From contig CAVVHS010000006.1 of NCBI GenBank assembly GCA_963748215.1, forward strand, positions 320,001-384,000: a stretch of DNA of 64,000 bases, written 5' to 3'. A program made the translations under genes and the position numbers. This DNA is from an uncultured Gammaproteobacteria bacterium (GTDB lineage: Bacteria > Pseudomonadota > Gammaproteobacteria > UBA9214). Position 1 is the stretch's first letter. Each line of letters starts with the position of its first letter. Below, one piece after another: positions 19,591 through 43,115 of the stretch. The notes below the pieces were generated by a model. The model was not told the DNA's origin and did not search any database. It worked only from the letters and a program-made list of their open reading frames with translations.

Positions 19591-19602
19591 GAAATTACCT
19601 GC

Positions 19603-25615: not shown

Positions 25616-26063
25616 GAGCAATACCCTCTCTGGCCATGACATGCGGCTGGTCGGTGCTGCCGGCAGACACGGTCTGGCGCTGGCCGGGTTTGACCGGCCG
25701 GTCTGCGTGACACTGGAAACAGTCGATATGCACTGCCGCGTAGCTGTGGCAGCTATTGCAGAAATGCTCCTCGCTGCTGACGCGGGGTGCGTCAGGCGCA
25801 TCGCTGACATGGCATTTGATGCATTCCTTCAGGCTGTGGCGGCTGCCGCGAATGCCCTCGTGCACGGTTTCATCGCGCTCGTGCAGGATGTATTTCATGT
25901 GGTTCTTGCGCATGTCCGCGGTGGGTTCCACACAACCCTGGGCTTCGCTGAAGCGCGCCTGGGCCGCGGGTATCTCCGGGAGCAGGGAATCACCGGCCCG
26001 ACCTGGCACTGCAAGGCCGGCGGTGATTGCCATTAGCAGGATGATGAGACTGTGTTTCAGCAT
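25608..26063 (-). CDS. dsrJ: DsrJ, triheme cytochrome c
   Basis: Signal peptide, 'MRKNHM', CIKCH, CNSCH, CFQCH. Confidence 0.9.
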   Translation of the reverse strand: MLKHSLIILLMAITAGLAVPGRAGDSLLPEIPAAQARFSEAQGCVEPTADMRKNHMKYILHERDETVHEGIRGSRHSLKECIKCHVSDAPDAPRVSSEEHFCNSCHSYAAVHIDCFQCHADRPVKPGQRQTVSAGSTDQPHVMAREGIAHE

Positions 26064-26094
26064 GACTGTGTCGTGTCCGCCATTTTGTATCCGG

Positions 26095-28065: not shown

Positions 28066-28115
28066 GCCTGTTCTCCTGTTATCTGATCAGGTGTTACCTG
28101 AGCAAAACTCAAAAA

Positions 28116-29606
28116 TTACTGTTTGTTGCCGAGCACGATCGCGTTGCTGACCAGCTGGTGCACGCTGACGATGCTGTCCATCTTGAAGCCGTAGTAGGGC
28201 AGGACCTTGGCGAACTGGCTCTTGCAGATGGCACAGATTGCGGCCATGTGGGTCACGCCATGGTTTTCGACCACGTGCTTCAGGGCCTCCATGCGCGGCA
28301 GGGCGCCCTTGACGCGCAGTTCCATCAGGTCGTCGGTCAGCAGGCCGCCGCCACCGCCACAGCAGAAGGTGGCGTCGTGGATGGTGTCCTGCGGCATGTC
28401 GTAAAAGTGATTGCAGCTGGCCTTGATCACCTCGCGCGGCATGATGAACTGCCCGCCCGGCATCGGCCCCATGCGCGAGGCACGGGCGACGTTGCAGGAG
28501 TCGTGATAGGTCAGCACCATATCGTCATTGGCCGACTTGTCCAGCGTGATCGCGTTGCGCTGGATCAGGTCATAGGTGAATTCCAGATGTGCTGCGGTAC
28601 CGGGTATTTCGGATCGAGGAAATCGAACGGCCCGGCCAGGGTGTTCAGGAAGCTGTAGGCAACACGCCAGGCATGACCGCATTCACCGAAGACGATGCGC
28701 TTTACACCGAGATCGAGCGCGGCCTCGCGGATGCGCAGCGACACCTTGCGCATGTTCTCGTAGCTGCCGATGAACATGCCGAAGTTGGCGGCCTCGCTGG
28801 CATGCGAACTCAGCGTCCAGCTGATGCCGGCCTCGTGGAATACCTTGGCGTAGCCCATCAGGCCGTCGACGTGCGGCTCGGCGAAGAAGTCCGCCGACGG
28901 GGTCACCAGCAGTATGTCGGCGCCTTTCTCGTCCAGCGGCAGGCGCACCTTGACGCCGGTGTCGTCCTCGACGTCCTCTTCCAGGCCTTCCAGGGTGTCT
29001 GCCAGGGCCGGTTCCGGCAGGCCGAGGTTGTTGCCGATCTTGTAGACCTTGCCGATGATTTCGTTGCAGTACTTCTGGCCGACACCGACGGAATCCATGA
29101 TCTCGCGCGCTGCCATGGAGATTTCGGCGGTGTCGATGCCGTAGGGGCAGAACACCGAGCAGCGCCGGCACTGCGAACACTGGTGGAAGTAGCTGTACCA
29201 GTCGTCCAGCACTTCCTTGGTCAGGTCGGTCGCGCCAACCAGCTTGGGAAAATACTTGCCGGCGAAGGTGAAGTAACGGCGATAGACCTTGCGCAACAGA
29301 TCCTGGCGCGCAACCGGCATGTTTTTCGGATCGGTGGTGCCGAGGTAGTAGTGGCACTTGTCGGTGCAGGCGCCGCACTTGACGCAGGAGTCCAGGAATA
29401 CCTGCAGCGAGCGGTATTTGCCGTAGCAGCTCTTCCATCTTGTCGATGGCGACCTGCTGCCAGTTGTCGACCAGCTCGCCCGGGAAGCCCAGCTGCTGCT
29501 GGAACTCTTCCTTCGCCACAAACGGCTTGCTGTGCGCCATCACCCCTTCGTGAAGGGTCGGGATGACGGGATATTCTTTCAGCTCCGGTACTTCGAAATC
29601 AGCCAC
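28116..29606 (-). CDS. dsrK: DsrK, heterodisulfide-reductase-like subunit (apparent frameshifts near 29420 and 28590)
   Basis: 'CVKCGACTDKC', 'CSQCRRCSVFCP', 'GECGHAW', 'YHDSCN', 'FCCGGGGG', 'CAICK'. Confidence 0.9.
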
Positions 29607-29639
29607 GCTCTGCTCCTGGTACGATCGTTATGCCGGTGG

Positions 29640-30368
29640 TTATTTCTCGAGTTCTGCCGCCCACGGTGCCAGGTGGCGCTGTTCGCGCGGGTTGTCCACC
29701 TGGTTGCGCGTCGGGCTGAAGAATACACCCGGTGCATGCAGCAGTTTGCTGATCGGGAAGATGATCATCAGCGTGGCGACCAGCCCGAGATGCACCAGCA
29801 ACAGCGGATCTTCGGGAATGGGCTGCCAGTTGAAATACATCAGGCCCAGGAAAAAGGCCTTGAGCGACACGATGTCGGTGTGCGAAATGTAATCCATGCT
29901 CAATCCGGTCAGTGCAATACCCATCAGCAGTGCCAGCATCAGGTGATCGGACAGGGCGGAGATATAGCGCACCCGGTCCACCAGCACGCGGCGCGCCCAC
30001 AGGCCGGCCAGTCCGGCGACCATGGCGAAGGCGGCATACAGGCCGAACGGCTGGATGAGCTCGACCCAGGTCCAGACCGGGTTGGTGAAATAACGCAGGT
30101 GGCGTGCCAGCACCAGGAACATGCCGAAGTGAAACAGGTAGCCGAAAATCCAGATCCACTTGTTGGAACGGAACAGGCTCTCGAAGAACGCCACTTCCCG
30201 GAACATGCGCAGCACGACGCCCTGGCGCGTGACCGGTGCCGGGGTGGTCGGAATCTTCAAGGGTGCCGGTGTTTTTGCATACTTGCTGATCCTGTAGGCC
30301 AGGCCGCCGATCAGCAGGGCGGTGGCAACATAGAACAGAAGTGCATACACAATGGTCCAGAACGGCAT
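29640..30368 (-). CDS. dsrM: DsrM, NarI-like di-heme b membrane subunit
   Basis: 'LKIPTTPAP', 'YLFHFG', 'LVHLGLV', 'SKLLHAPG'. Confidence 0.92.
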   Translation of the reverse strand: MPFWTIVYALLFYVATALLIGGLAYRISKYAKTPAPLKIPTTPAPVTRQGVVLRMFREVAFFESLFRSNKWIWIFGYLFHFGMFLVLARHLRYFTNPVWTWVELIQPFGLYAAFAMVAGLAGLWARRVLVDRVRYISALSDHLMLALLMGIALTGLSMDYISHTDIVSLKAFFLGLMYFNWQPIPEDPLLLVHLGLVATLMIIFPISKLLHAPGVFFSPTRNQVDNPREQRHLAPWAAELEK

Positions 30369-30401
30369 GCTACCTGGCTCCTGTTAGGGTTGTAAGATTC
30401 A

Positions 30402-30434
30402 GAAGGGCTGCAGGGGATGTCCCCTGCAGCCTTC
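30402..30434 (-). other. Strong intergenic stem-loop between dsrC and dsrM
   Basis: GAAGG(G)CTGCAGGGGA-TG-TCCCCTGCAGCCTTC; no U-tract on the transcribed (minus) strand. Confidence 0.7.
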
Positions 30435-30444
30435 GGTTGTTGCG

Positions 30445-30780
30445 TCAGACGCAGCCGGTCGGCTTCGGCAGACCGGCGTACTTGCAGGCCTGCTTGGCGG
30501 GACCGTACGGGAACAGCTCGTACAGGTACTTGCTGTTGCCCTTGTCCTTGCCCAGCTTCTTGCCGATGGCCTTGGTCAGCACGCGAACGGCCGGGGCGAT
30601 CTGGTATTCCTCGTAGTATTCACGCAGGAAATTGATCACTTCCCAGTGGTTCTCGGTCAGCTCACAGTCGTCGAGCTTGGCCATGACATCCGCCACGTCC
30701 TTGTCCCATGTATTCAGGTCAGCCAGGTAACCTTCTTCGTCAGTTTCGTAAGTCTTGCCGTTCGCTTCAATTGTACCCAT
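30445..30780 (-). CDS. dsrC: DsrC sulfur carrier
   Basis: 'DEEGYL', 'HWEVINFLREYY', C-terminal 'ACKYAGLPKPTGCV' with both conserved Cys. Confidence 0.95.
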   Translation of the reverse strand: MGTIEANGKTYETDEEGYLADLNTWDKDVADVMAKLDDCELTENHWEVINFLREYYEEYQIAPAVRVLTKAIGKKLGKDKGNSKYLYELFPYGPAKQACKYAGLPKPTGCV

Positions 30781-30824
30781 GTGAGGTCTCCTCGTTGGAT
30801 GACGCTAATCAAAAAAAATGAAAA

Positions 30825-31121
30825 TCAGAGCCAGGACTGTACCTTGTCGTTGGCTGTAACCAGATCGACGAACCCGCCGTAATCGATGACGTCGACGCCA
30901 TCCAGCAGCTTGTCTTCCGTGATGCCGCGCGCGGCCAGGTCCGGCCCGAGCACGGCGACCTTGAGGCCTTTCAGCAGGCTTGCCGCCTTGCCGTTTTTCA
31001 TCGCTCCGTAAATACCATCCTCGATGAGCAGCAACTGGTCGCCATCCTTCATGATGGTCGATGCCGTGTTCAGGCTGCCGGTGTCGTAGGGTGACTTGTT
31101 TACCAGGTGTAACATTGCCAT
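30825..31121 (-). CDS. dsrH: DsrH
   Basis: 'MLHLVNKSPY', 'LLIEDGIY', 'DLAARG', 'VQSWL'. Confidence 0.92.
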   Translation of the reverse strand: MAMLHLVNKSPYDTGSLNTASTIMKDGDQLLLIEDGIYGAMKNGKAASLLKGLKVAVLGPDLAARGITEDKLLDGVDVIDYGGFVDLVTANDKVQSWL

Positions 31122-31139
31122 TATTCCGGGCTCCCTGTA

Positions 31140-31550
31140 CTAGAAGTTGAACAGCACGTCTTGCTCGGCGAGCACGTCTGCCATTTCCGCGCGTGTGACC
31201 AGGCGGATGGAATCCTTTTCCGCGTAGTCCTCGTCCTCGTCTTCCCAGACCAGGTGTTGCAGGTCATCCAGGGTCAGGCCGCGTTCCTCGAGGGATTCCT
31301 TCTCGACGTAGATCTTGTTGACCTCGTAGTCACCCAGCGCGGCGTAGGTGGGCGAGAAGTTTTTCATGCCGATGCCCGCGGTGTCCTGGCCCTTGACGAG
31401 CTGGTACACACCGTCGTCCAGGAAGGCCATGCTGACGTCCTGTTCGAAGGCGGCGCCGATCAGTACCACTTCCAGCGATTCCCACGCATAGATCGTCCCG
31501 TAGGGCGCCCTGCGGTTGATGTACATCATTTTCTTGGATTCTTCAGACAT
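31140..31550 (-). CDS. dsrF: DsrF
   Basis: 'RRAPYGTIYAWESLE', 'FLDDGVYQL', 'ESLEERGL'. Confidence 0.92.
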   Translation of the reverse strand: MSEESKKMMYINRRAPYGTIYAWESLEVVLIGAAFEQDVSMAFLDDGVYQLVKGQDTAGIGMKNFSPTYAALGDYEVNKIYVEKESLEERGLTLDDLQHLVWEDEDEDYAEKDSIRLVTRAEMADVLAEQDVLFNF

Positions 31551-31564
31551 TGCCGCTCTCCCGC

Positions 31565-31958
31565 TCAGTCGCCGAACACGACCAGTCGATCGCTCTGGAC
31601 GCCACCTTCGATCAGCTGACCCAGTCCGGAAATGCGGAAGCCGGGGGCGATGTTGGTTGCGTCCTTGCCGTTACGCTGCGCCTCGCCCTCGTCGACGATG
31701 CCGCGCCGCTGGGCGGCAGCCACGCACACCACCATGTCGATGTTGTGTGCCTGTCCCAGTTCACTCCAGCGCTTGACGATATTGCGATCGTCCTGCGGCG
31801 GTGTGGTCAGGCGCGTGCCGTTGTTGACGCCGTCGTGGTAGAAAAAGATACGAAAGATCTCGTGTCCCTTTTCCAATGGCCGCCTTGGCGAAAAAGTAGG
31901 CCGTGTCCGCGGCCTGGTGCTGGTAGGGCCCCTCGTTAACCTGGATTGTAAGCTTCAT
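31565..31958 (-). CDS. dsrE: DsrE sulfurtransferase (one apparent extra base near 31875)
   Basis: 'MKLTIQVNEGPYQHQA' plus 'FFYHDGV', catalytic 'VCVAAAQRRG', 'ISGLGQL'. Confidence 0.9.
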
Positions 31959-31973
31959 TCACATACCCTCTGA

Positions 31974-33051
31974 TCAGAAACGGATATGGGTTGAAGCGTT
32001 CAGGCTTGCACGGGCACCACGCCAGTTGTCGATGTGGTACTTGGTGAACGGCAGCCCGGTCTTCTCGAAGAAACGCGGCCAGCCGATACGCTCGATCCAG
32101 TCGTTGATACGCTCCCAGTCCTTGGCGTCTTCCTTGTAGACCTTGAGGATCTTCTTGACGACGGCGGTGGCTTCCGGCCAGCGCGGCGGGTTGTTCGGGA
32201 TGCCGGAGGCGACCAGCTTCTGGAAGGTCGGCTTGCCGCGGGCATTGGAGTGGTTGCCGCCCACCCAGATGGCCAGCTTGGAGTGCTCGGCGTCGTTGAT
32301 CTGCATCGGCGGGCAGGGCGGGTAAGCAGGCACCGCAGCAGATGCACTTCTTCTCGTCGACTTCCAGCGACGGCTTGCCGTTGACCAGTGCCGGGCGAAT
32401 GGCCGCGACCGGGCAGCGTGCCACGACCGACGGACGCTCGCAGACGTTGGACAACCAGGTCGTGGTTGATCTTCGGCGGCTTGGTGTGCTGCACGTTGAT
32501 GGCGATGTCGCCCTGGCCGCCGCAGTTGATCTGGCAGCAGGAGGTGGTCATGTGCACGCGGTTCGGCATGTTCGCAGCCTTTGAACTCGTCGATCAGCTC
32601 GTCCATCATCGACTTGACCACGCCGGAGGCGTCGGTGCCCGGGATGTCGCAGTGCAGCCAGCCCTGGGTGTGCGACATCATGGCGACGGAGTTGCTGGGT
32701 ACCGCCGACGACGAAGCCGGCATCTGTCAGCGCCTTGATCAGCGGCTCGACCTTGGCCTCGTCGGACACCATGTATTCGATGTTGCTGCGAATGGTGAAG
32801 CGCACATAACCCTCGCCGTAGGTGTCACCGATTTCGCACAGCTTGCGCAGGGTGAACAGGTCGAGGATACGCTGGGTGCCGGCGCGCACGGTCCAGATCT
32901 TGTCGCCATTGTTGGCAACGTGCAGCAGGACGCCGGGCTGCGGATCTTCGTGATAGGCCCACTGCCCGTAGTTCTTGCGCATTACCGGGTGCATGTACTG
33001 GAATCCGTCAGGACATCCGGATTCGATCGGCGAACGCATTTCTTGTGCCAT
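31974..33051 (-). CDS. dsrB: Reverse dissimilatory sulfite reductase beta subunit (several apparent frameshifts)
   Basis: 'SGCPDGFQYMHP', 'HTQGWLHCDIPGTDASG', 'TTSCCQINCGG', 'CERPSVVARCP', 'KCICCGAC', 'IPNNPPRWPE', 'NASTHIRF'. Confidence 0.92.
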
Positions 33052-33138
33052 GTGATTCTCCTGAAAATCTCTTCAAGTTTTTGAACAAATCCCGGCGTTT
33101 GTACGCCGGGGTTGTCATATATGAACGGGTTGACCGGC

Positions 33139-34405
33139 TTACGCGGAGGCAGCCTGCTCCTCGGCCTTGCGCTCGAACCACTTCTCGGCTTCTTCGTCCC
33201 AGCCGTCCATGCGGACGTAGGAAGACTGGCGCGGGTTGCTGACCATGTTCGGGTCCACCTCGACGCCGATGCCTTCGAGGAAGTTGACCAGACCGATACG
33301 CTCGATCATTTCACCGCAGCGCTCGTGCTCCAGGCCGTTCTCGGCCCAGAAGTCGATGATCTCCTCGGCCATTTCACTGCAGGCTTTCGTAGTCTTCCTC
33401 GGTTTCCAGCTTCTTGAACGGGACCACCACGGTACCCATCAGGTCGCCGATCTTCAGCGTGCGCTTGCCGCCGATCAGGATGGTGACGCCCTTGTCGTCG
33501 CCCGGGTGCAGCGCCTTCGGCATGACGTTCAGGCAGTGCATGCAGCGCACGCAGTTCGTGGTTGTCGACGGTCGATGGTGTCGTCGTCGTTCAGGGTCAG
33601 GGCCTTGGTCGGGCAGCGGGTGATGACGTTGTCGATCACGTACTGACGGCCTTTCTTGCCGACGTAGTCCTTGACTTCTTCCTGGTCGACCTTCATGTCG
33701 TCGCGCCAGGTGCCGATGACGGCGAAGTCGGCGCGCTCGATGGCGTTCTGGCAGTCATTCGGGCAACCGGAGACCTTGAACTTGAACTTGTAGGGCAGGG
33801 CCGGACGGTGCACGTCGTCGGTGAAGTTGTTCACCAGCCAGCGCTGGATGCCGTGCTCGTTGGCAGCAGGACATTTCGCAGCGCGCCGCACCGACACAGG
33901 ACATGGCGGTACGCACGCACGGGCCGGCACCACCGAGATCCCAGCCGTACTCGTTGATTTCGTCGAAGAAGTGCTGGGTGTTTTCGGTGGTGGTACCGAT
34001 AAACATGATGTTGCCGGTCTGGCCGTGGAAGGTCACCAGGCCGGAACCCCATTTTTCCCAGCTGTCGCCGAGCTGGCGCAGCATGTCGGTGGTGTAGTAG
34101 TTGCCGGCCGGCGGCTGCACGCGCAGGGTGTGGAATTCCTTCGATTCCGGGAAGGCCTTGCCGACTTCGGAGAAGCGCGGGATGATGCCGCCGCCATAGC
34201 CGTAGACACAGACGGTGCCGCCTTTCCAGTAACCCTTGCGGGTTTCGTAGGAGTGCTCGAGCTGACCCAGCAAACCGTTGGTGACGTCGTTGATGCGTTC
34301 GTCCGGGTGCTCGTCACGCAGCCGCTTGATGCCGGTGATGAAGCTCGGCCAGGGGCCGTTCTCGAGTTCGTCCAGCATGGGAGTCGGGTAGGTGTTCTTG
34401 GCCAT
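33139..34405 (-). CDS. dsrA: Reverse dissimilatory sulfite reductase alpha subunit (several apparent frameshifts)
   Basis: 'TPMLDELENGPWPSF', 'YWKGGTV', 'FHTLRVQPP', 'CVRTAMSCVGAARCE', 'YKFKFKVSGCPNDC', 'HERCGEMIERIG'. Confidence 0.93.
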
Positions 34406-34890
34406 GGCAATAATCTCCTGGATTGTTTTCTACACCAATTGGTTTGCTACTGATGACAGCGCGCGCTGTCGCCCTGCCGGGCAACTGGAAATCAGCGAGT
34501 TATACGGAATTACAACAGCGTAACTCTCAGTTGAGCGCATTGTAGAAAGGCTCTGCGGGTATACATATCCTACCCTTGGGGTGGCGCCTATATGGGCCCG
34601 TATCCCGAACGGGGTATTGGCAGAATATTGATTTAATTTCCGGTAGTTATCAGAGTTGCCCGGATTTACTAATGCGTACAGAACTTTTTCTTATATTAAC
34701 GCGCACTTAAGTAACCCTTTCTCAACCGGAGAAACGGGATTGCCGGTGTGATTTCAGCTATTTAGATGAGAATCACTCTCATTAGCAATTGGCCGCCGGC
34801 AGCGCAGGCAAGTCCCGGCCCCATGTATTAAACATTTAAGTGTGACCGTAAGATACAGGCTCCTGAAAAACCGGCCCGTCGCACAACTCC

Positions 34891-35835
34891 ATGATACACA
34901 GTCCAGACAGCTTTCGACCCTTTGACCTTGCCGGCGATGCCGACTACCGGGTCTGGCGCGCGTGGAAGCTGGATGGCTACCCCGTGGCCGCCGCCGACCT
35001 GATTGTGGACGTCGGCGATCCGGCGCACCTGTCAGCGGCCGAGCATGCGGCGATCCTGGCGCGCTGCCGCAAGGCCAATATGGCGATTTATGCCGTCCGG
35101 GGTGGTGGTAGCGCGGACAAGGAGGCGGTGCGCGCACTGGGCAGGCAGTTCGGGCTGGAACGTCTGGACATGAACCTGCGCGCCGACGAGGACAGCATCA
35201 CCGCGTTGCGGGTGGTACCGGAATCGGCGGGGACCCGTTACATCCCCTACACCAACCGGCCGCTGAACTGGCATACCGACGGTTACTACAACACGCTCGA
35301 CGAACAGGTGCGGGCCATCCTGATGCACTGCGTGTCCGCCGCGGCCAGCGGCGGCGAGAGTGTGCTGTTCGATCACGAACTCGCCTACCTGTTGCTGCGT
35401 GACGAGAATCCGGATTACATTCGCGCGCTCATGCAGCCGGACGCCATGACCATCCCGGCCAACATAGAGGACGGCCGGCAGATCCGCGGCGCGCAATCCG
35501 GTCCGGTCTTTACGGTTGAAAAGGGTAGCAACGCCCTCCATATGCGTTATACGGCACGCACCCGCAGTATCGAGTGGAAGGACGACCGGGACGTGCGCAA
35601 TGCCATCGAATTCCTGCGTGAATTGCTGGACAGCGACCTGCCCTGGATCTTCCGGCACCGGCTGCAGGCCGGACAGGGCATTATCTGCAATAATGTACTG
35701 CACAGGCGCGATGCCTTTGACGACGCGGCGGGTGACGGACAGGCCCGGCTGCTGTACCGGGCGCGTTATCACGACCGGATCCGCGCGACCGTCGCCGACA
35801 ATGATTTTTATGGAGACAGGCAATGCTGTGGTTGA
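34891..35835 (+). CDS. TauD/TfdA-like Fe(II)/2-oxoglutarate dioxygenase
   Basis: Facial triad 'WHTDGYY' and 'NNVLHRR..F', C-terminal 'RLLYRARY'. Confidence 0.8.
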   Translation: MIHSPDSFRPFDLAGDADYRVWRAWKLDGYPVAAADLIVDVGDPAHLSAAEHAAILARCRKANMAIYAVRGGGSADKEAVRALGRQFGLERLDMNLRADEDSITALRVVPESAGTRYIPYTNRPLNWHTDGYYNTLDEQVRAILMHCVSAAASGGESVLFDHELAYLLLRDENPDYIRALMQPDAMTIPANIEDGRQIRGAQSGPVFTVEKGSNALHMRYTARTRSIEWKDDRDVRNAIEFLRELLDSDLPWIFRHRLQAGQGIICNNVLHRRDAFDDAAGDGQARLLYRARYHDRIRATVADNDFYGDRQCCG

Positions 35836-36014
35836 GCGAAGTGCTGATACAGCAGCATGACATCGAGTCCTTCGAGGCCCTGAAGCAGGCCATCAGCGCG
35901 CGTGCGCGCGGCGGCGAGATCCATTTCCGCATGGATGTGCGTCCGCCGTTTCCCGATACACCCGAAGACTGGGAAGACCGGCTGGAAGCGGCCTTCTACT
36001 CGACAGGCAATTAA
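35823..36014 (+). CDS. Small acidic hypothetical protein, translationally coupled to the TauD-like gene
   Basis: 63 aa, GGAGA RBS, overlaps the upstream stop; 'MDVRPPFPDTPEDWEDRLEAAF'. Confidence 0.7.
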   Translation: MLWLSEVLIQQHDIESFEALKQAISARARGGEIHFRMDVRPPFPDTPEDWEDRLEAAFYSTGN

Positions 36015-36026
36015 CCCCGGCGGTCA

Positions 36027-36725
36027 ATGACAAGCATGTTCTGGAACGACGAAAAGCAGAAAGCACCGGACTTCGTGATCCCGGATGACGTCGTCGACCT
36101 GGCGTTCAGGATCGGCTGCCCGACACTGCCGCTGGATCACGCCCATGCCCTGTCGCGAGCCCTGCTCGAGGTCCTGCCCTGGCTGGATGACGAGCCGCAT
36201 GCCGGCGTCCACCTGATTCACGGTGCCGCCTCCGGTAACGGCTGGTATCGCCCCGAGGATGCCGCCAGCGAGCTGCTGCACCTGTCGCGGCGTACCCGCA
36301 TGCGCCTGCGTGTGCCCAGGCATCGCCTGGAGGATGCGCGCAAGCTGACCGGCCGGCGGCTCGATATCGGCGGCCATCCGCTCGAAGTCGGCGACTCGGA
36401 GGTTTTCCTGCTGAGCAGCCTGTCGACGCTGTTCTCGCGCTACGTCATGACCGGGGCCGACACCGATGAACAGGCCTTCCTGGAGGAGGCCACGCGTGGG
36501 CTGCAGGCCATCGATATCGATTGCCGCAAAATGCTGGGGGGCATCAGCCATGCTCTGCAGTTCCCGGACGGACCGGTACACACCCGCAGCCTGATGGTGG
36601 CGGATCTCGAGCCGGAGCAGTCGGTGCGACTGCAGCAGCTCGGACTGGGCGAGGGGCGCAGCATCGGCTGCGGCCTGTTCCTGCCGCACAAGGGCATCAA
36701 GCCGGTCAACGACGCAAAGGAATAG
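36027..36725 (+). CDS. cas6: Orphan Cas6-family (type I-MYXAN Cmx6-like) RAMP endoribonuclease
   Basis: N-terminal 'VDLAF.I....LPLDHAHALSRAL...LPW', 'RLRVP', 'LTGRRLDIGG', and C-terminal glycine-rich loop 'LQQLGLGEGRSIGCGLFLPHK', typical of Cas6/Cmx6. Confidence 0.8.
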   Translation: MTSMFWNDEKQKAPDFVIPDDVVDLAFRIGCPTLPLDHAHALSRALLEVLPWLDDEPHAGVHLIHGAASGNGWYRPEDAASELLHLSRRTRMRLRVPRHRLEDARKLTGRRLDIGGHPLEVGDSEVFLLSSLSTLFSRYVMTGADTDEQAFLEEATRGLQAIDIDCRKMLGGISHALQFPDGPVHTRSLMVADLEPEQSVRLQQLGLGEGRSIGCGLFLPHKGIKPVNDAKE

Positions 36726-36952
36726 CCTTGTCGGTCAGGCGCTGTCCCGGGCGAGGCCTGCCATTCCGGTGTTGCGCGATAAATACCTGCCCGCGCGGCT
36801 GAGACCCGCCAGGACAGCCGGCAAACCGTCGTATAAGGAAACGCACTTCGGCCGGCTTCCCATATGGGATATGTTCGGTGCTCGGGCAACTGGCTATAGT
36901 TGCGCTTATTCAATAATTTACAACGACTTGACTCGCATCCGGAGAGAAGATC

Positions 36953-37156
36953 ATGAGCAATAAACAGGAACTGATCGCCAAACTGCTGGAAATGCAGAAG
37001 AAATTCATCGATTACGAGCATGCCAATGGCGTGGAGATGAAGGACTACTTCGCCGCCGATGAAGGCCATCCACTGAAGGGCTTCCGCCAGGAATACACGG
37101 ACCTGGCTAACCAGCTGGTCGACATCGCGCACACCGAAAAGGGTTCGCATCGCTAG
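36953..37156 (+). CDS. Small hypothetical protein
   Basis: 67 aa, GGAGAG RBS, host-like codon usage, followed by an intrinsic terminator. Confidence 0.75.
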   Translation: MSNKQELIAKLLEMQKKFIDYEHANGVEMKDYFAADEGHPLKGFRQEYTDLANQLVDIAHTEKGSHR

Positions 37157-37173
37157 TCAGGCGTAATAGCAAT

Positions 37174-37209
37174 AAAAAGCCGCATTCCGAAAGGGTGCGG
37201 CTTTTTTTT
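37174..37209 (+). terminator. Intrinsic (probably bidirectional) terminator
   Basis: AAAAAGCCGCATTCC-GAAA-GGGTGCGGCTTTTTTTT. Confidence 0.85.
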
Positions 37210-37234
37210 GGCGTGACCTCTAAGGCCAGTAGCG

Positions 37235-37410
37235 GCCACAGAGGGCACAGAGTACACAGAGAAAAATCAAATCAGAAAATGCCTGGCCGACACTCGGCAC
37301 CTTTGTCTGCAGGCGGCCGGGTTACCACCGGAATCCCGTGCCTTGCACCGCTGGTGACAGCTTACGCGGAAGATATGAAATAATTCTGTGAGCTCCGTGT
37401 TCTCTGTAGC
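37235..37410. repeat. Imperfect inverted repeats built of CACAGAG units (REP/MITE-like)
   Basis: GCCACAGAGGGCACAGAGTACACAGAGAA (37235-37263) versus TTCTGTGAGCTCCGTGTTCTCTGTAGC (37384-37410). Confidence 0.55.
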
Positions 37411-37445
37411 GACTGTTTATTGAATGACGGCTTGCCCGTCCGGAG

Positions 37446-37790
37446 TCAGTACCCGCCCTTGCGCAGGATGAATGGCAGACCGGCGATCCGGTTACCCTGC
37501 TTGCTGGGGGCGAAGGGGAACAGTTCAAAGAGTTCCTTGCTGCTGACTTTCTTGTCCCAGATCTTGGCCATGCTCTTGTTGATCACCCGCTCCATGGGCT
37601 GTGAGCCGTTGTTATCGAAGTATTCCGAGCGCAGGTAATTCAGTACATCGAAATGCGCCTCGGTCAGCTCGATACCTTCCTTGGCGGCCAGTGCTTTCGC
37701 AACATCCTCATCCCAGGCGGTCGGGTCGGTGAGATTGCCGTTCTCATCCAGTTCGATGCTCTTGCCGTTTACGTCCAGTGCCATTTTCAT
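37446..37790 (-). CDS. DsrC/TusE-family paralogue lacking C-terminal cysteines (RspA-like)
   Basis: 'LDENGNL', 'LTEAHFDVLNYLRSEY', 'LFELFP', ends 'RIAGLPFILRKGGY'; no Cys in the protein. Confidence 0.82.
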   Translation of the reverse strand: MKMALDVNGKSIELDENGNLTDPTAWDEDVAKALAAKEGIELTEAHFDVLNYLRSEYFDNNGSQPMERVINKSMAKIWDKKVSSKELFELFPFAPSKQGNRIAGLPFILRKGGY

Positions 37791-37998
37791 GCTCCTGATT
37801 CAACTTGAGAAAAGAATTTTGAGGCGGAATTGTATTGCAATACAGCCGTCATCGGAAGAGGTGCGAACACGACCCGGTATGCATTTTACAGGCATTCCAC
37901 AGGGTATTTTCCCGTGCCACAACGCCTGGACGATGTCTTCAGGGAAGCCGGATGTGCGGATAAAATACCCGTTCCGAAAATTGATCGATGGCTGACAC

Positions 37999-38508
37999 AT
38001 GCGTATTCGGGAATTCACCCTGCCAGACCCGGCGGCACTCAACGAGCGTCTGTATGCCCGGTTTCTGGAATTATCCGGCACCGACCGGATCAGGCAGACC
38101 CATCATTTTGCCGGCCGTTTCGAGAACACCTACATCGCCGCGGCTGACATACCGGAGATTGCCGCGGTTCTGGATGTGTTCCGGCAGCAGGCCGCGCAGT
38201 GGCTGGACGTTGCCGCGGATACGCTGAAGGCCGGGTTCTGGTTTAACGCCATGGGACCGGGGCACGTGACTTCACCGCATCACCACGACGAGAACGACGA
38301 GCTCCTTTCGGCGGTGTACTACATCCGCGTACCCGCAAACTCCGGCGAGTTGATCCTGTACGACGACGATACGCCGGTCACCGTGCGGCCGGAAGAAGGC
38401 AAGCTGGTGATGTTCGGTCCTGATGTGATGCACGAGGTGACGGTCAACAACAGCCCGGAGCTGCGCCTGTCTGTCGGCATGAACATCGGGCCGGCTGATG
38501 CGGAATAG
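37999..38508 (+). CDS. 2OG-Fe(II) oxygenase-like protein
   Basis: 'WFNAM..G..TSPHHHD', 'LSAVYY', 'MHEV', 'RLSVGMN'. Confidence 0.75.
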   Translation: MRIREFTLPDPAALNERLYARFLELSGTDRIRQTHHFAGRFENTYIAAADIPEIAAVLDVFRQQAAQWLDVAADTLKAGFWFNAMGPGHVTSPHHHDENDELLSAVYYIRVPANSGELILYDDDTPVTVRPEEGKLVMFGPDVMHEVTVNNSPELRLSVGMNIGPADAE

Positions 38509-38595
38509 CCGGTTGGTCAAAATCTCTCACGGCGATTTCGTCACTAACGCCCAACCCAGGCAACGGGAAAATATTTCACCTGTTTGGTATGGGCG

Positions 38596-39315
38596 CTATT
38601 TCTTTCCTCCCTCCAGTCGCCCCCCCTGCTGAAGCCATTGGGCCACCAGCCAGCAGGCGGCGGCCCAGGCCGCTCCGGCCGCCCAGCCGGCCAATACATC
38701 GCTTGGCCAGTGAACCCCGAGATAGACGCGACTGACACCGACCAGCAACGTAGCCAGCACAGAGCAGCCGATCAGGTAGATCCGTACCCTGCGCGCGGCG
38801 TGTGCCACCGCCAGCAAGGCGCCGCCGGTGAGATAAACCACCGCCGACAGCATCGAATGGCCGCTGGGAAAACTGGATGTATAGATCATCGAACCGTGAG
38901 CCACCAGGTCCGGGCGTGGCCGGTCAAAACCGTTCTTGAGTGCCAGGCTCAGCAGCAGGCCACCCAGTATCGCCGACAGTACGAACAACGCGACCCGCGG
39001 CAGACCCTGTAGCCAGAGGTAGCCTATCGAAACCAGGGTGAGCAGGCCGAGCACCCCGATACCCCCCAGGGCCGTGAAGTCACGGAACATTTCCTCCACC
39101 CAGGCAGGGCCCAGCGGGTCGCCGGGGTCCCCTGGTACGCGCGTCGCCAGCAGCAGCCATCGGTCGAGCCGCGCGGTGTCGCCTTCCAGCATCTCATCGG
39201 CGATGCCGATAAAGGCGAATAATCCAAAGCCGAAAATCAATAGTGCCAGCGAGGCAAAATGATGCCGGGCGAATAGTCTGGGAGAGACAGAAGCCGTTTT
39301 TTGCTTAGCACTCAC
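38596..39315 (-). CDS. PAP2-family membrane phosphatase
   Basis: 'KNGFDRPRP', 'SFPSGHS', 'SRVYLGVHWPSDV'. Confidence 0.9.
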   Translation of the reverse strand: MSAKQKTASVSPRLFARHHFASLALLIFGFGLFAFIGIADEMLEGDTARLDRWLLLATRVPGDPGDPLGPAWVEEMFRDFTALGGIGVLGLLTLVSIGYLWLQGLPRVALFVLSAILGGLLLSLALKNGFDRPRPDLVAHGSMIYTSSFPSGHSMLSAVVYLTGGALLAVAHAARRVRIYLIGCSVLATLLVGVSRVYLGVHWPSDVLAGWAAGAAWAAACWLVAQWLQQGGRLEGGKK

Positions 39316-39374
39316 CTGGCATTACCCCTGAAATAAAAGGGCCAGAAACATTTTCTGAATTGGCATCAGTAAAA

Positions 39375-39401
39375 TTCTGTGTGCTCTGTGCACTCTGAGG
39401 C
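39375..39401. repeat. Third copy of the CACAGAG-type repeat
   Basis: TTCTGTGTGCTCTGTGCACTCTGAGGC; its reverse complement resembles 37235-37263. Confidence 0.5.
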
Positions 39402-39446
39402 AGGTTATTTGTATTTTCCCTGCGCCTCCGCGCGAGACAGGGTTTC

Positions 39447-40118
39447 TCAGACATCCGACCACATGCGCACCAGGTTGATGTAGGACTGGTTGACCTGCAC
39501 GGTTTCCGCTGCGTCCGGTCTATCATGCAACAATACCTCGCGTGCCTGGTTCAGGTCGTGCAGCAGCGCGCGGCGGTCGGGTTCGCGCACCAGGCTCTGT
39601 ATCCAGCTCACGGCGACCAGGCGTTCGCCGCGGGTGACTTCGGCGACGCGGTGGATGCTGGAGGAGGGGTAGATCACGGCGTCGCCGGCCGACAGCTTGA
39701 CCTGCTGGTCGCCGAACGGGGTCTGGATGCATAGCTCGCCGCCATCGTAGTCCTGCGGTTCATTCAGGAAGATCGTTACCGACACATCGGACCGGTACAG
39801 GTCACCCTGGCCCATGATCGGGTCGTCGACATGATTACCGTAGGCCATGCCGGGCAGGTAGCGGGCGTAGTAGGGCGTGGCGGTCTTGCGTGGCATGGCT
39901 GCGCTGCGGAATACCGCATGCCGGACCAGGCTGCCCATCACCAGGTTGTTGAGTTCGCTCATGCGTGCCGGGTCCAGCGCCAGTTCCTCGTTCAGCTTGA
40001 CGCGCCGTGCCGCCGTACCGGCAGAGCCGCGGCCGTCACCGAAGCGTCCGCCGGCGATCAGCCGTTCGACGGTATTGAGTTGCGAGCGGTCGAGCACGCC
40101 CTCTATACGGGTGAGCAT
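39447..40118 (-). CDS. PKHD-type Fe(II)/2OG hydroxylase (YbiX/PiuC-like)
   Basis: 'YGNHVDD', 'RSDVSVTIFL', 'YDGGEL', 'YPSSSIHRV..VTRGER', 'NLVRMWSDV'. Confidence 0.9.
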   Translation of the reverse strand: MLTRIEGVLDRSQLNTVERLIAGGRFGDGRGSAGTAARRVKLNEELALDPARMSELNNLVMGSLVRHAVFRSAAMPRKTATPYYARYLPGMAYGNHVDDPIMGQGDLYRSDVSVTIFLNEPQDYDGGELCIQTPFGDQQVKLSAGDAVIYPSSSIHRVAEVTRGERLVAVSWIQSLVREPDRRALLHDLNQAREVLLHDRPDAAETVQVNQSYINLVRMWSDV

Positions 40119-40199
40119 GAATCAGTCCTGCAGCCGGTGGCGGGTATGCGGTAACATAAACACGATACAGTCAGTGTAACCAAAATCAGGGCGCTAATC

Positions 40200-40523
40200 A
40201 TGATTCTGAACGTGGTGGTGGAGGAACAGGTCTATCCGGTCAAGGTGCCGGATATGCTGATCAACGAGGCAGGTGACTTCTTCGACAAGATGGATGCCGA
40301 CATGGATAAGGGCTGGCAGATGAGTCGCGACTGGGTGGATAACCCGACCCTGGAACAACGCTGCCAGATCGTCGGTGACAAGATGCTCACCGCCATGCAC
40401 CAGGACAACAAGAAGATGCTGCTGCTGCTGTCCGCCTACATCCTCGCGCGGGCGCCGGGCGTGACCGGCATCCGTATCGATAGCAATGGCGAGATGCTGG
40501 AAACCGAGCTGGTGACGGACTGA
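40200..40523 (+). CDS. Hypothetical protein
   Basis: 107 aa with host-like codon usage; 'FFDKMDADMDKGWQMSRDWV'. Confidence 0.7.
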   Translation: MILNVVVEEQVYPVKVPDMLINEAGDFFDKMDADMDKGWQMSRDWVDNPTLEQRCQIVGDKMLTAMHQDNKKMLLLLSAYILARAPGVTGIRIDSNGEMLETELVTD

Positions 40524-40550
40524 GTGCACTGACTGCCGCGTAGACTGCCC

Positions 40551-40934
40551 ATGGCCGACCTGTTTTCCGTTACCGCGCCCTTACTGATCCGTTATCCCGA
40601 TGGCCACCGGCACATCATGCTGGAACGCTTCGCGTATGGCCCGGGCCATGCCCGTAATAATGGCTCGGCTTCTCCGGCGGGACTGGTCTATTTCCGACCG
40701 TTCTGGGACCGGCTGGGTGAGGAGGGCATTTGCCTGGTGCAGGGCGAACTGCGCGGTGACGGGCCATGGAAGGTCGGTGCCGCGGTGATCACGGTGCTGG
40801 GCTGCCACGGCAGCGATCCCGTCGAGGCTGCCGAGTACGCCGACTGGCTGCTGCATCGCGAGCAGCTCGCCGACAACTACCCGGATCGTGAAACGCTACG
40901 GGACATGGCACGCAGTGCCGGTTACCTGCCCTGA
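40551..40934 (+). CDS. Hypothetical protein
   Basis: 127 aa, co-directional with the previous gene; 'GDGPWKVG', 'LGCHG'. Confidence 0.6.
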   Translation: MADLFSVTAPLLIRYPDGHRHIMLERFAYGPGHARNNGSASPAGLVYFRPFWDRLGEEGICLVQGELRGDGPWKVGAAVITVLGCHGSDPVEAAEYADWLLHREQLADNYPDRETLRDMARSAGYLP

Positions 40935-41377
40935 GCGGTGCTGCCGCCGAACCGCTTGCTCATTTTCACGTGGGCGATACGGTTGAACAGCGTGTGTCCG
41001 GCGCCATCCACCGCATAACCCTGCTTGCGATAGAAGCCAAGCGCGGTTTCCCGTGCATCCAGTACGATGCGTGCGGCGCCCAGTGCGCACGCCCTGTGCT
41101 CGAGCGCATGGAGCAGCCGGCTGCCGAGACCGCTGCGCTGCTGCGCTACCTCGACCGCCATGAAGCGGATCTGCGCCTCGCGGATGGTGTTGAAATGCAG
41201 GCGTCCCACGGCCAGCGGCTTGCCGCCGTCATCGACCAGCATGAGATGGGTGCTGCCGGCATCCTGCGCATCGCACTCGCTGCCGCGTGGCTGGTCCCAG
41301 GGCGCGCGCAGGATGCGCCAGCGCAGGTCGTAGTATCGCCGGTACTCGTCGGCGCTGGTCGGCTCGATGAGGCGCAT
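40922..41377 (-). CDS. GNAT-family acetyltransferase
   Basis: 'AQIRFMAV..QQRSGLGSRLL', 'DARETALGFYRKQGY'. Confidence 0.85.
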   Translation of the reverse strand: MRLIEPTSADEYRRYYDLRWRILRAPWDQPRGSECDAQDAGSTHLMLVDDGGKPLAVGRLHFNTIREAQIRFMAVEVAQQRSGLGSRLLHALEHRACALGAARIVLDARETALGFYRKQGYAVDGAGHTLFNRIAHVKMSKRFGGSTAQGR

Positions 41378-41397: not shown

Positions 41398-42009
41398 TCA
41401 GGCGAACACGACCCAGGTAGTGGCGATGTACTTGACGCCCTGCTCGAGTCTGGCGCCACGGTGTTCGTGGGTCCAGAACGGCGGAAACAGCAGCAGCTTG
41501 CCGGCCTCGGGCTGAATCTGGACGTCCTGGCAGGAAAACTCGGTGGCCCCGCCGGGGCCGGGCACATCGTTCAGGTACCAGACCGCCACCAGCTGGCGCT
41601 GGCTGAAATCGTGGCTGCCGCCGTCGATGTGCCAGTGATAGAACTCGCCGGGCAGGGTGCGCTGGATGGCATAGCCGCTGTCCTTGAATGGGCCGCCGAA
41701 AAAGGGATAGGCATTGCGGAATTCCTGGATGGCCCGTCCCAGCGACCGAAACAGCTCGCGATCGATGTCCTGCCAGTGTTCCTTGCCGCTGACCACCAGG
41801 TCGGTCGAGCGCTTGATGTCGCGTTCCTGCTGCACGGTCTGGCCGACGCGGCCGGGATACTGTTCATCCGTGCGTTCCTCGAAGCGGCGGATCATCTCGT
41901 TGCATATGTCGAGCGGCAATGCGCGTGGCTTCTCGAAGATGAAACTCAGCGGCTTTACCTCGCGGAGAGTGGTCAGTGGCGCGGTCGGTGCCGTAGCGGA
42001 TTGTTTCAT
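41398..42009 (-). CDS. 2OG-Fe(II) oxygenase (prolyl-4-hydroxylase-like)
   Basis: 'YHWHID', 'VWYLND', 'GGATEF', 'LFPPFWTHEHRG', 'KY'. Confidence 0.82.
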   Translation of the reverse strand: MKQSATAPTAPLTTLREVKPLSFIFEKPRALPLDICNEMIRRFEERTDEQYPGRVGQTVQQERDIKRSTDLVVSGKEHWQDIDRELFRSLGRAIQEFRNAYPFFGGPFKDSGYAIQRTLPGEFYHWHIDGGSHDFSQRQLVAVWYLNDVPGPGGATEFSCQDVQIQPEAGKLLLFPPFWTHEHRGARLEQGVKYIATTWVVFA

Positions 42010-42029
42010 GACAGTCGGTGTCTGCGTGG

Positions 42030-43115
42030 TCAGAGCTGGTTCGATTCGATGGTGGCGATGAGTTGCTGCCGGCACCCGGTGCCTTGCCGGTCGAACAGGT
42101 CAAGCAGCTCGCCGGCCAGTGTCGTCCAGTGCGCCGCCGAGCGGTCAGAGAGTTGCTCGAGTTCACGGGTATTCCCGGTAATCGTCCAGATCTCGTAGGC
42201 GGCGAGCAGTTGCGGAAACAGTTCCTTGCGCATGCTGGACAGGCTGCCGATGTAGCAATGCAGTGTCGCCGGGTTGTTCTCCGCCAGCAGGCCGGGCAGC
42301 GTCGAAAGCGCGTCCGCCAGGTGATCGCGCACGGCGCGCAGCATGATCTCCTCCCTGCTGTGGCCGAGTCTCACCAGCATGTCTTCCCAGCCGGGACCGA
42401 GCAGTTTGCCGGCCTGCACCTCGCCGATCTCGTGCAGCATCACCGTGTTCAGCTCGCTGTCGGTCATCGCCTCGAGCGATTCGTCCGGTGCGTTCTCGAA
42501 GTCATAGCACTCGAGGGCGTGCTGCATGGCATTGGCCGGGCGGTTCCAGCGCCATTCCTCGAGTCGTTCCCACAGCATCCTGCGCAGCGACTCGCGACGG
42601 ATGAAGATGGTGCCGTCCAGGCTCATGGCCGGCGGCGCAGCGAGGTCGCGCGCCAGCTCCCGGCCGGATACCAGCAACTGGTAATCATCACGTTGCCGGT
42701 GGACCTCGAGCGTGCCCATGAAGAACACCGGCTTCATGCCGGGACCGTAGCCGCTGCTGTAGACATACCCGAGCGGATTCAGCACGGCATTGATCGCGGC
42801 GCTATCGAAAGGACTGAAGCGTTCATTGCCGACCGGTATATTCTCGAAGCGGCTGTGCTCGAGGCTGTCCCAGTGCGTCTCGCGCCGGGTCAGCCAGTCG
42901 GTCAGCTGGTCGTGCGGCAAGGCGGCCCCGAACGGCAGGCCGTGTTCCCAGCGAAAGTACTCGCGCATCTTGAGCAGGTAGACGCACAGGGTGTAGTTGG
43001 TGGCGAATTGCGCATCGGAGATATGGCAGTTGGTGCGCACAGCACCGAGCGTCGGCATCAGTGCGCTGATGTCGGCTGCTGCTGCGAATGGACTGGGTCT
43101 GCCGTTGGTCTTCAC
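42030..43115 (-). CDS. Conserved hypothetical protein (Sfum_1244-like family)
   Basis: 'VRTNCHISDA', 'YTLCVYLLKMREYFRWE', 'MLHEIGE', 'RAVRDHLAD'. Family name is from recall. Confidence 0.65.
   Translation of the reverse strand: MKTNGRPSPFAAAADISALMPTLGAVRTNCHISDAQFATNYTLCVYLLKMREYFRWEHGLPFGAALPHDQLTDWLTRRETHWDSLEHSRFENIPVGNERFSPFDSAAINAVLNPLGYVYSSGYGPGMKPVFFMGTLEVHRQRDDYQLLVSGRELARDLAAPPAMSLDGTIFIRRESLRRMLWERLEEWRWNRPANAMQHALECYDFENAPDESLEAMTDSELNTVMLHEIGEVQAGKLLGPGWEDMLVRLGHSREEIMLRAVRDHLADALSTLPGLLAENNPATLHCYIGSLSSMRKELFPQLLAAYEIWTITGNTRELEQLSDRSAAHWTTLAGELLDLFDRQGTGCRQQLIATIESNQL

Follow-up and report, generated by a model that had tools for sequence, protein, structure and literature searches.

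A CRISPR-free Cas6/Cmx6 clade beside dsrA in the oxidative sulfur locus of Gammaproteobacteria

The subject of this study is a 232-residue protein of the Cas6/Cmx6 family, encoded beside dsrA in a 64,000-nucleotide stretch of DNA (the window; positions 320,001 to 384,000 of contig CAVVHS010000006.1, assembly GCA_963748215.1) from an uncultured gammaproteobacterium. Cas6 enzymes are, to our knowledge, known solely as makers of the RNAs of CRISPR systems. The window protein is part of a Cas6/Cmx6 clade of its own, passed on vertically, that stands outside CRISPR immunity and is a fixed accessory of the oxidative dsr (reverse dissimilatory sulfite reductase) locus of gammaproteobacterial sulfur oxidisers. 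Domestication of a Cas6 into this locus, proposed in a preliminary description of this DNA that linked a CRISPR-independent Cas6 to sulfur oxidation, is well supported by conserved synteny, co-occurrence with DsrA, a separate position in the family tree and purifying selection. That description called the gene an orphan, a term that holds in that the gene is free of CRISPR and fails in that it is not a lone gene, since it has many relatives in a clade maintained by vertical descent. The exaptation of a Cas6 clade without CRISPR into the core energy metabolism of sulfur suggests a new, non-immune job for the protein.

The distribution of the family was determined in 401 genomes drawn evenly from the class, each at least 90% complete; related genomes among them are non-independent samples, and the unpublished genomes G295, G063 and G141 contribute to the counts but not to any sequence analysis. 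The Cas6 family, as the Pfam profile PF09559, was carried by 126 of the 401 genomes, and a strong DsrA match was likewise found in 126; both were present in 121, the Cas6 family only in 5, DsrA only in 5 and neither in 270. No Cas1 match was found in 57 of the 121 genomes with both; the Cas6 family follows DsrA and not CRISPR. Carriers of PF09559 span approximately 95 genera, and a hand tally of coordinates placed the Cas6-like gene within 5 kb of the DsrA match in 95 of the 121 genomes, on the same contig at a distance of at least 76 kb in 4 (G074, G378, G151 and G304) and on a different contig in 22. Among the genomes with the Cas6 family only, the gene of G045 is CRISPR-linked and that of G295 looks CRISPR-linked (Cas1 lies on the same contig), those of G136 and G166 stand in the usual dsr-linked block cut by a contig end, and that of G424 is unexplained. 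A phylum-wide draw contained the PF09559 family in 3 of 301 genomes, the source genome included, a figure that says little about its spread, DsrA not having been searched for there.

The order of the genes surrounding the Cas6-like gene is conserved. Within its own genus the gene occurs in 22 of 24 genomes, at 63–82% identity, and the 12 neighbourhoods compared show the same arrangement: dsrB–dsrA and then, in the opposite direction, the genes of a TauD-like dioxygenase, a 63-residue protein, the Cas6-like protein and a 67-residue protein, with a DsrC-like gene next. A wider scan, made with a query alignment of 20 sequences against one genome per species, returned at least 589 relatives; the locus counts given here refer to the best 80 of these related loci (48–93% identity), with denominators restricted to loci that have enough flanking sequence. 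Upstream of the Cas6-like gene, the 63-residue protein gene was present in 70 of 73 loci, TauD in 59 of 64, and DsrA, adjacent and divergent, in 52 of 55. Downstream, a DsrC-like gene lay within 1.5 kb in 72 of 75 loci, the 67-residue open reading frame (ORF) was found in 61 of 71 and a PiuC-type hydroxylase gene in 55 of 66. Named sources of the best 80 loci comprise Thiohalobacter, Thiogranum, Thioalkalivibrio, Thioalkalispiraceae, Acidiferrobacterales, Arenicellales, Thiotrichaceae, Candidatus Parabeggiatoa and Candidatus Muproteobacteria, alongside many unnamed Gammaproteobacteria. The three-protein module with a dioxygenase of the preliminary description is thus a conserved one, and it is larger than was described, the 67-residue protein and a DsrC paralogue without cysteine usually following.

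Departures from this arrangement define the core of the module. In three Thiotrichaceae-like loci (L097, L098 and L103), just the pair of 63-residue and Cas6-like genes is present, among unrelated genes, and because these loci keep the pair alone it is taken as the core. TauD is missing from the locus of G033 (L020) and from 5 of 64 loci, and the pair is kept. The full block is kept in genomes of 1.1 Mb (G185 and G329; locus L116), and it is also complete in a culturable species, Thioalkalivibrio denitrificans ALJD (L062). In 9 of 73 loci, an extra gene of approximately 230 codons with no assigned family lies between the 63-residue and Cas6-like genes (for example L019 8034–8750, L020 9295–9981 on the minus strand, and L023); its homologue in the source genome (C4:33776–34465; L026 7726–8436) is 45% identical and stands beside genes of an H+-pyrophosphatase (H+-PPase) and a phosphofructokinase. 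Two metagenome-assembled genome records titled ‘Halobacteria archaeon’, L036 (CAVYIJ010000017.1) and L037 (JABDRC010000157.1), also carry the block, at 72–73% identity and in the same order; their titles are probably wrong.

Membership of the Cas6 family, read in the preliminary description from two motifs, was borne out by profile searches. The 232-residue protein matched PF09559 with an E-value of 1.8e-64 (217.7 bits against a cut-off of 26.7, over profile positions 1–190 of 191) and the NCBIfam model TIGR02807 (cas6_cmx6) with 143.3 bits, above the curated cut-off of 98.85; in PADLOC, it was recognised solely by Cas6 models, with E-values down to 3.2e-64. Both motifs are present, LPLDH at residues 34–38 and the glycine-rich loop GLGEGRSIGCGLF at residues 206–218, before the last strand. 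In a collection clustered at 90% identity, 2372 relatives were found at E-values of at most 1e-3, the 120 best of which are all PF09559 proteins bearing the source names ‘CRISPR-associated protein Cas6’ or ‘type I-MYXAN ... Cas6/Cmx6’; in a library clustered at 50%, 989 clusters were found at E-values of at most 1e-3 and 179 at E-values of at most 1e-30.

No other component of a CRISPR system was detected in the source genome. The whole 3.52-Mb assembly (9 contigs, 95.28% complete) contains a single PF09559 match, the Cas6-like gene itself, and profile searches across it returned no matches for Cas1, DevR/Cas7, Cas5d, Cas3_HD or Cas2; three helicases matched cas3_core, all below the cut-off (the best with 49.2 against 102.45 bits). 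A k-mer scan of the whole genome gave 26 candidates for interspaced repeats; the 8 regions richest in copies proved to be simple tandem repeats lacking unique spacers, and the remainder have 3–4 copies each. The preliminary description had found no other cas gene or array in the window, nor any compositional anomaly; the first statement extends to the whole assembly, in which the array candidates inspected are not arrays, and GC content near the locus is an unremarkable 0.58–0.62. The regions C9:63019–65680, C7:181282–181931 and C5:219327–220040 consist of tandem repeats of 78–204 nucleotides around the palindrome GTAGGGTGC...GCACCCTAC, and were rejected as CRISPR arrays and classed as elements resembling repetitive extragenic palindromes.

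These results bear on one alternative, namely that the protein is an ordinary Cas6 that processes CRISPR RNA (crRNA) for a system elsewhere in the genome or in its unassembled part, or a decaying remnant of one. Public annotation names the protein type I-MYXAN Cas6/Cmx6, it passes the curated cut-off of TIGR02807, and the assembly is 95% complete, with repeats being a class of sequence that often fails to assemble. A type I system lacking its own cas6 elsewhere in this genome, which would have given the protein such a role, has no support, absence from a draft not being proof. The lack of cas1, cas2, cas3, cas5 and cas7 matches and of arrays among the inspected candidates, the 57 of 121 carriers without a Cas1 match, and the purifying selection and fixed synteny by dsrA over many families all speak against this alternative, as do the separation of the clade from CRISPR-linked copies and the second Cmx6 owned by genomes with a real I-MYXAN system. 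We regard it as hardly credible.

Genuine CRISPR-linked Cmx6 proteins do occur in the class and allow a direct comparison. Complete type I-MYXAN systems were found at L107 (G045) and L108 (G294), with arrays of 18 and 8 repeats, respectively, and genes for Cmx6, Cas3, Cas8/Cmx8, Cas7/DevR, Cas5/DevS and Cas4–Cas1. Their Cmx6 proteins have 194 residues and share 29–36% identity with the window protein. Both a dsr-linked copy and a CRISPR-type copy are present in G294 and in G415, and on four cyanobacterial plasmids CRISPR-linked Cmx6 genes stand near genes annotated as cas3, cas8, cas7 and cas5. In a quick LG+G4 tree of 93 sequences, 6 CRISPR-type copies (one of them, L112, labelled so solely by its near-identity to the L108 copy) are separated from 87 copies linked to dsr or to the 63-residue gene by a branch of length 1.21 with an SH-aLRT (Shimodaira–Hasegawa-like approximate likelihood ratio test) support of 100, a split at which the long branches that meet call for caution. 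Ratios of nonsynonymous to synonymous substitution within the genus are 0.14–0.28 for the Cas6-like gene, 0–0.16 for the 63-residue gene and 0.06–0.27 for TauD; the Cas6-like clade is under purifying selection.

An AlphaFold (AF2) model of the Cas6-like protein, built on an alignment of 95 sequences, has a mean predicted local distance difference test score (pLDDT) of 91.5 and a predicted template modelling score of 0.87, whereas the model from the single sequence reached a pLDDT of just 35.3. The model consists of two ferredoxin-like domains of the RNA recognition motif (RRM) type, arranged with Cas6 topology. A Foldseek search of the PDB with the model returned as its top match the Cas6 of a type I-B CRISPR-associated transposon (CAST) Cascade, 8fcu_B (E-value 1.7e-16, template modelling scores 0.76 and 0.82), together with 8fcj_B; the next matches are the Cas6 structures 3pkm, 5yi6, 3i4h and 4c8y, Pyrococcus and Thermus proteins among them, and Cas6e proteins. 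The sequence profile of the family matches 8fcj_B independently of the model, with an E-value of 6.8e-27. Because Foldseek and the family profile both pick the Cas6 chain of the type I-B CAST, the Cas6 fold of the modelled protein is confirmed.

At least 90% of the 95 sequences keep D37, H38, R89, R95, R138, G206, G208, G214, G216 and K222. H38 lies at the start of helix 1, which we take to be where the catalytic residue of Cas6 enzymes usually stands. The DH motif, R95, S188, Q203 and the glycine-rich loop are common to the dsr-linked clade and CRISPR-linked Cmx6, the DH pair being found in the CRISPR-linked proteins of L107, L112 and L118–L121. With the type I-MYXAN/I-B Cas6 (Cmx6; 8FCJ/8FCU chain B) the window protein therefore shares its family, its double-RRM fold and these elements, and it differs in being approximately 35 residues longer, in the lack of cas genes and of an array both around it and elsewhere in its genome, and in its fixed place beside dsrA with a 63-residue partner gene. 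Particular to the dsr-linked clade are an N-terminal extension of approximately 20 residues with an invariant tryptophan, an insertion of approximately 10 residues (SGNGWxRP) and a C-terminal PHKGI tail.

Because the double-RRM fold, the Asp–His motif, the arginines and the glycine-rich loop have been kept, the most likely role of the Cas6-like protein is in binding or processing RNA, a tentative reading that we place slightly short of an even balance because no RNA has been found and because retention in small genomes fits other roles. The protein would bind, and may cut, an RNA that is short and structured, acting post-transcriptionally on messages of the dsr regulon, either that of the long dsr operon or that of its own operon. 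The small acidic 63-residue protein would be its partner or modulator, and the oxygen-dependent dioxygenase could tie the module to aerobic life. A precedent may exist in Allochromatium vinosum, in which post-transcriptional control of the dsr operon by DsrR and DsrS was reportedly described by Grimm et al. in 2010–2011. That would be a precedent for control of dsr at the RNA level, by protein families unrelated to Cas6 (DsrR is IscA-like) and not known to be connected with the present module.

Several results weigh against an RNA role. An RNA target was sought at the locus and at related loci and was not found. In an alignment of the dsrA 5′ leader from 65 loci, the conserved part comprises just the −10 box and the ribosome site; the 55 spacers that follow the Cas6-like gene have no hairpin in common; the window contains 0 matches to the hairpin pattern of the L107 and L108 I-MYXAN repeats; and an E-value scan of positions 30000–41000 against Rfam returned nothing except a chance-level match on a terminator. 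GC-rich hairpins do occur, one between dsrA and dsrB (33091–33110, minus strand, 8-bp stem) and one just after dsrC (30406–30431, minus strand, 11-bp stem). Of 56 loci, roughly half have a strong dsrA–dsrB hairpin, which varies in sequence and is unspecific. The sole conserved element of the spacers behaves as a DNA palindrome. The conserved histidine and glycines could be there for the fold or for a protein partner and not for RNA, the counts over related genomes are non-independent, and retention in 1.1-Mb genomes agrees no better with regulation than with an accessory role of a structural or catalytic kind, and perhaps less well. Genomes of approximately 1.1 Mb usually shed regulators and keep few accessory genes. 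Transcription of the block itself has a weak hint in Logan contigs from three sediment or estuary metatranscriptome runs (shares 0.05–0.09), which are near-identical to TauD (35445–35638), to the junction of the 63-residue and Cas6-like genes (35886–36036, 0 mismatches) and to the DsrC paralogue (37534–37783); contigs of this kind, which do not show ends, strand or level and whose gaps in coverage carry no meaning, cannot prove it.

The conserved spacer element follows the pattern TATCYC-N4-GRGRTA. With up to 2 mismatches it has 131 matches in the 80 loci, compared with 32–54 in shuffled sequences; 54 of the 131 lie in the spacer between dsrA and TauD, and others lie before the 67-residue and DsrC-like genes. 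With up to 3 mismatches there are 72 matches in 64 of 65 dsrA–TauD spacers, approximately 200 nucleotides from dsrA. As a candidate RNA hairpin for the Cas6-like protein the element was rejected, there being no strand-specific excess of G–U pairs and no excess of compensatory pairs. Pairs of G–U type number 34 on one strand and 30 on the other, and doubly changed pairs are close to chance expectation, on account of which the palindrome is read as a DNA operator, probably that of a regulator of the dsr regulon, for which the RspA-type protein and the LuxR-type regulator are candidates. Its presence both between dsrA and dsrQ and ahead of the 67-residue and DsrC-like genes argues for joint control of the block and dsrAB.

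The same observations give room to a different role, in which the RAMP (repeat-associated mysterious protein) fold has been re-used for binding protein and no RNA is involved. The Cas6-like protein would then form a complex with the 63-residue protein and the cysteine-less DsrC paralogue and dock on DsrAB, DsrC or the sulfur relay, as an assembly factor, a chaperone or a plug of the DsrC-binding channel. The constant partners of the gene are protein genes, that of the 63-residue protein in 70 of 73 loci and that of the DsrC-like protein in 72 of 75; the block is kept in 1.1-Mb genomes; the N-terminal extension, the SGNGWxRP insertion and the PHKGI tail are the clade’s own; and the searches for an RNA target came up empty. 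The DsrC paralogue, moreover, keeps the long C-terminal arm, with RKGGY replacing the two cysteines. Opposed to these points is the retention, over deep divergence and in common with true Cmx6, of the DH motif, the arginines and the glycine-rich loop; we also know of no Cas6 that works free of RNA, which counts against the proposal. We consider it possible, if somewhat doubtful. A complex prediction for the Cas6-like and 63-residue proteins gave no answer (score 0.00) and weighs neither way on binding.

Neither the 63-residue nor the 67-residue protein has a match in Pfam, NCBIfam or PADLOC. The 63-residue protein has 15 invariant columns in 65 sequences; its automatic Atlas name, ‘sulfur relay protein DsrC’, would make it a DsrC fragment, an assignment rejected at a profile–profile probability of 0.4%. 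Atlas clusters of the 67-residue protein are named solely ‘hypothetical protein’. Among the downstream DsrC paralogues, 72 of 73 have no cysteine in the last 12 residues, and the almost invariant tail ...AGLPxSxRKGGY is two residues longer than the ...PKPTGCV of DsrC. The Gly-Gly-Tyr end is thus conserved on the arm, flexible in DsrC, with which DsrC enters DsrAB. RspA proteins may be regulators. The window paralogue resembles the RspA branch of the family named DsrC/TusE/RspA (in the accessible part of PMC8477390) in having neither C-terminal cysteine; the RKGGY tail and the fixed place after the Cas6-like gene are absent from the descriptions found, as far as their accessible parts go.

The TauD-like protein matches PF02668 over residues 38–291, and its translation contains WHTDGYY and VLHRRD, presumably the iron-binding facial triad (H-x-D...H). 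It has its own literature. A tauD-like gene divergent from dsrA was named dsrQ by Lenk et al. 2012, according to the accessible part of Loeffler et al. 2020 (PMC7596348), and the window gene fits that description in family, in its place upstream of dsrA and in its opposite direction. The same part of PMC7596348 carries the speculation that DsrQ frees sulfite from sulfonates and notes its occurrence mostly in (facultatively) aerobic chemotrophs; it mentions the tauD-like gene alone and not the 63-residue, Cas6-like or cysteine-less DsrC genes. A literature search found no paper linking Cas6 to dsr genes, a mention in Lenk et al. 2012 or its supplements being possible. The module had been called uncharacterised in the preliminary description, which is correct for a dsr-linked Cas6 as far as this search goes and incorrect for the TauD-like gene, already named.

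DsrQ could also be the leading member of the block, in an oxygen-dependent modification or sulfonate-handling pathway in which the Cas6-like and small proteins are carriers or substrates of 2-oxoglutarate (2OG) oxygenases, a hydroxylated tail serving, for example, as an oxygen signal for dsr. The stop of TauD overlaps the start of the 63-residue gene by 13 nucleotides, and the sulfonate speculation and aerobic bias reported for DsrQ (in the accessible part of PMC7596348) agree with such a pathway. So does a cluster of Fe(II)/2OG oxygenase genes: four, each starting within 7 kb of the start of dsrA, represent different families (34891, 37999, 39447 and 41398). The pair of Cas6-like and 63-residue genes is, on the other hand, kept without TauD (G033 L020; 5 of 64 loci) and away from both dsr and TauD (L097, L098 and L103), and the RAMP fold has no known tie to such chemistry. 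This alternative appears improbable.

Returning to the RNA role, its most extended form is one that we put forward as speculative and on balance unlikely. A Cas6 descendant would be an integral and near-universal part of the gammaproteobacterial oxidative Dsr system and, with its 63-residue partner, would process or hold a specific RNA, such as parts of the long dsr transcript, so setting the levels of DsrAB, DsrC and the relay to oxygen through DsrQ. If true, this would be the first Cas protein in core energy metabolism, without array, Cascade or mobile element. CRISPR-associated transposons and type IV plasmid systems also contain a Cas6-family protein outside adaptive immunity, and the nearest solved structure of the window protein is itself the Cas6 of a transposon-recruited Cascade. 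CRISPR-associated transposons and type IV systems keep their Cascade partners and crRNA arrays, whereas the present clade has lost all other Cas components and sits in a chromosomal setting of core energy metabolism.

Whatever its chemistry, the oxidative Dsr system of aerobic sulfur oxidisers appears to own an accessory block of five genes, coding for DsrQ, the 63-residue protein, the Cas6-like protein, the RspA-type DsrC and the 67-residue protein, of which, as far as we found, only dsrQ has been named so far. Applied to the dsr-linked genes, the label ‘type I-MYXAN CRISPR-associated protein Cas6/Cmx6’ misleads; since 121 of the 126 carriers of PF09559 in the class sample also have DsrA, it can inflate counts of CRISPR–Cas systems in sulfur oxidisers and symbionts. 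The module offers a testable case of exaptation of a Cas protein into a housekeeping role, and may bear on how chemotrophs tune dsr expression.

Table 1 Features of the dsrA–Cas6-like locus. Positions are those of the window unless a contig is named.
Feature	Position	Strand	Evidence or remark
dsrA, oxidative-type sulfite reductase alpha subunit	33139..34405	-	NIR_SIR and NIR_SIR_ferr Pfam matches on pieces; four frame pieces
dsrA, TIGR02064 matches	contig C6 353160-354375		Profile search of the genome
Divergent dsrA/dsrQ control region, 485 nucleotides	34406..34890		ORF map
Palindrome TATCCCGAACGGGGTA, likely DNA operator	34601..34616		One copy of the TATCYC-N4-GRGRTA element
TauD-family Fe(II)/2OG dioxygenase (dsrQ), 314 residues	34891..35835	+	PF02668, E-value 5.7e-24
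63-residue acidic protein, no known family	35823..36014	+	Partner gene of the Cas6-like gene
Cas6/Cmx6-family RAMP protein, 232 residues	36027..36725	+	Likely true start 36036
Second palindrome copy CTTCCCATATGGGATA	36856..36871		−35 position of the promoter-like site TGGCTATAGT before the 67-residue ORF
67-residue conserved protein, no family	36953..37156	+	
Terminator-like strong hairpin, then T run	37174..37206	+	After the 67-residue ORF; 14-bp stem, 5-nucleotide loop
DsrC-family paralogue without any cysteine (RspA type)	37446..37790	-	PF04358, E-value 9.3e-32; also TIGR03342
Small 2OG-Fe(II) oxygenase, 169 residues	37999..38508	+	PF13759 and PF13640; frequent neighbour within the genus
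PiuC/PKHD-type 2OG-Fe(II) hydroxylase, convergent on the block	39447..40118	-	PF13640 and PF18331
Fourth Fe(II)/2OG oxygenase gene	41398-42075		

At the level of the locus (Table 1), dsrA starts at 34405 on the minus strand and diverges from three plus-strand ORFs. The tight coupling of these three ORFs and their divergence from dsrA are as they had been described, with the 13-nucleotide overlap followed, on the ORF map, by a gap of 12 nucleotides between the 63-residue and Cas6-like genes. A GGAGA sequence lies 7 nucleotides ahead of the ATG of the 63-residue ORF. The Cas6-like ORF has a second ATG at 36036, which may be its true start because relatives begin at MFW or MYW. In the control region, the alignment of 65 leaders shows a conserved −10-like CCTAnAAT for dsrA, and within the genus the motif CCCAnnGGG(TAG)GATATGT occupies the −35 position of the promoters of both dsrA and the 67-residue ORF. 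The 169-residue 2OG oxygenase encoded farther downstream also matches the PADLOC ‘CAS-associated 2OG’ profiles, with an E-value of 2.3e-10.

The dsrA and dsrB genes of the window (32466–34405) are broken into several frames, as are dsr genes around 25700–30400. Relative to the closest relative (L027, 94% identical), dsrA and dsrB contain six single-base insertions, at 32574, 32696, 33376, 33554, 33573 and 33866, four of them in dsrA and none of the six in a homopolymer; the TauD, 63-residue and Cas6-like coding sequences have no single-base insertions in this comparison. Contigs from the RNA libraries also lack the base at 33376, 33573 and about 33863. Error in assembly or polishing seems a likelier source of these frame breaks than pseudogene formation. 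The H+-PPase gene on contig C4 is likewise split.

After the dsr operon come genes for a rhodanese, a LuxR-type response regulator and a histidine kinase with a GAF domain (19120–21830, minus strand), which are candidate regulators of the locus. In G033 (L020 6757–7980, minus strand), the genes of a LuxR-type regulator and a rhodanese directly adjoin that of the DsrC paralogue.

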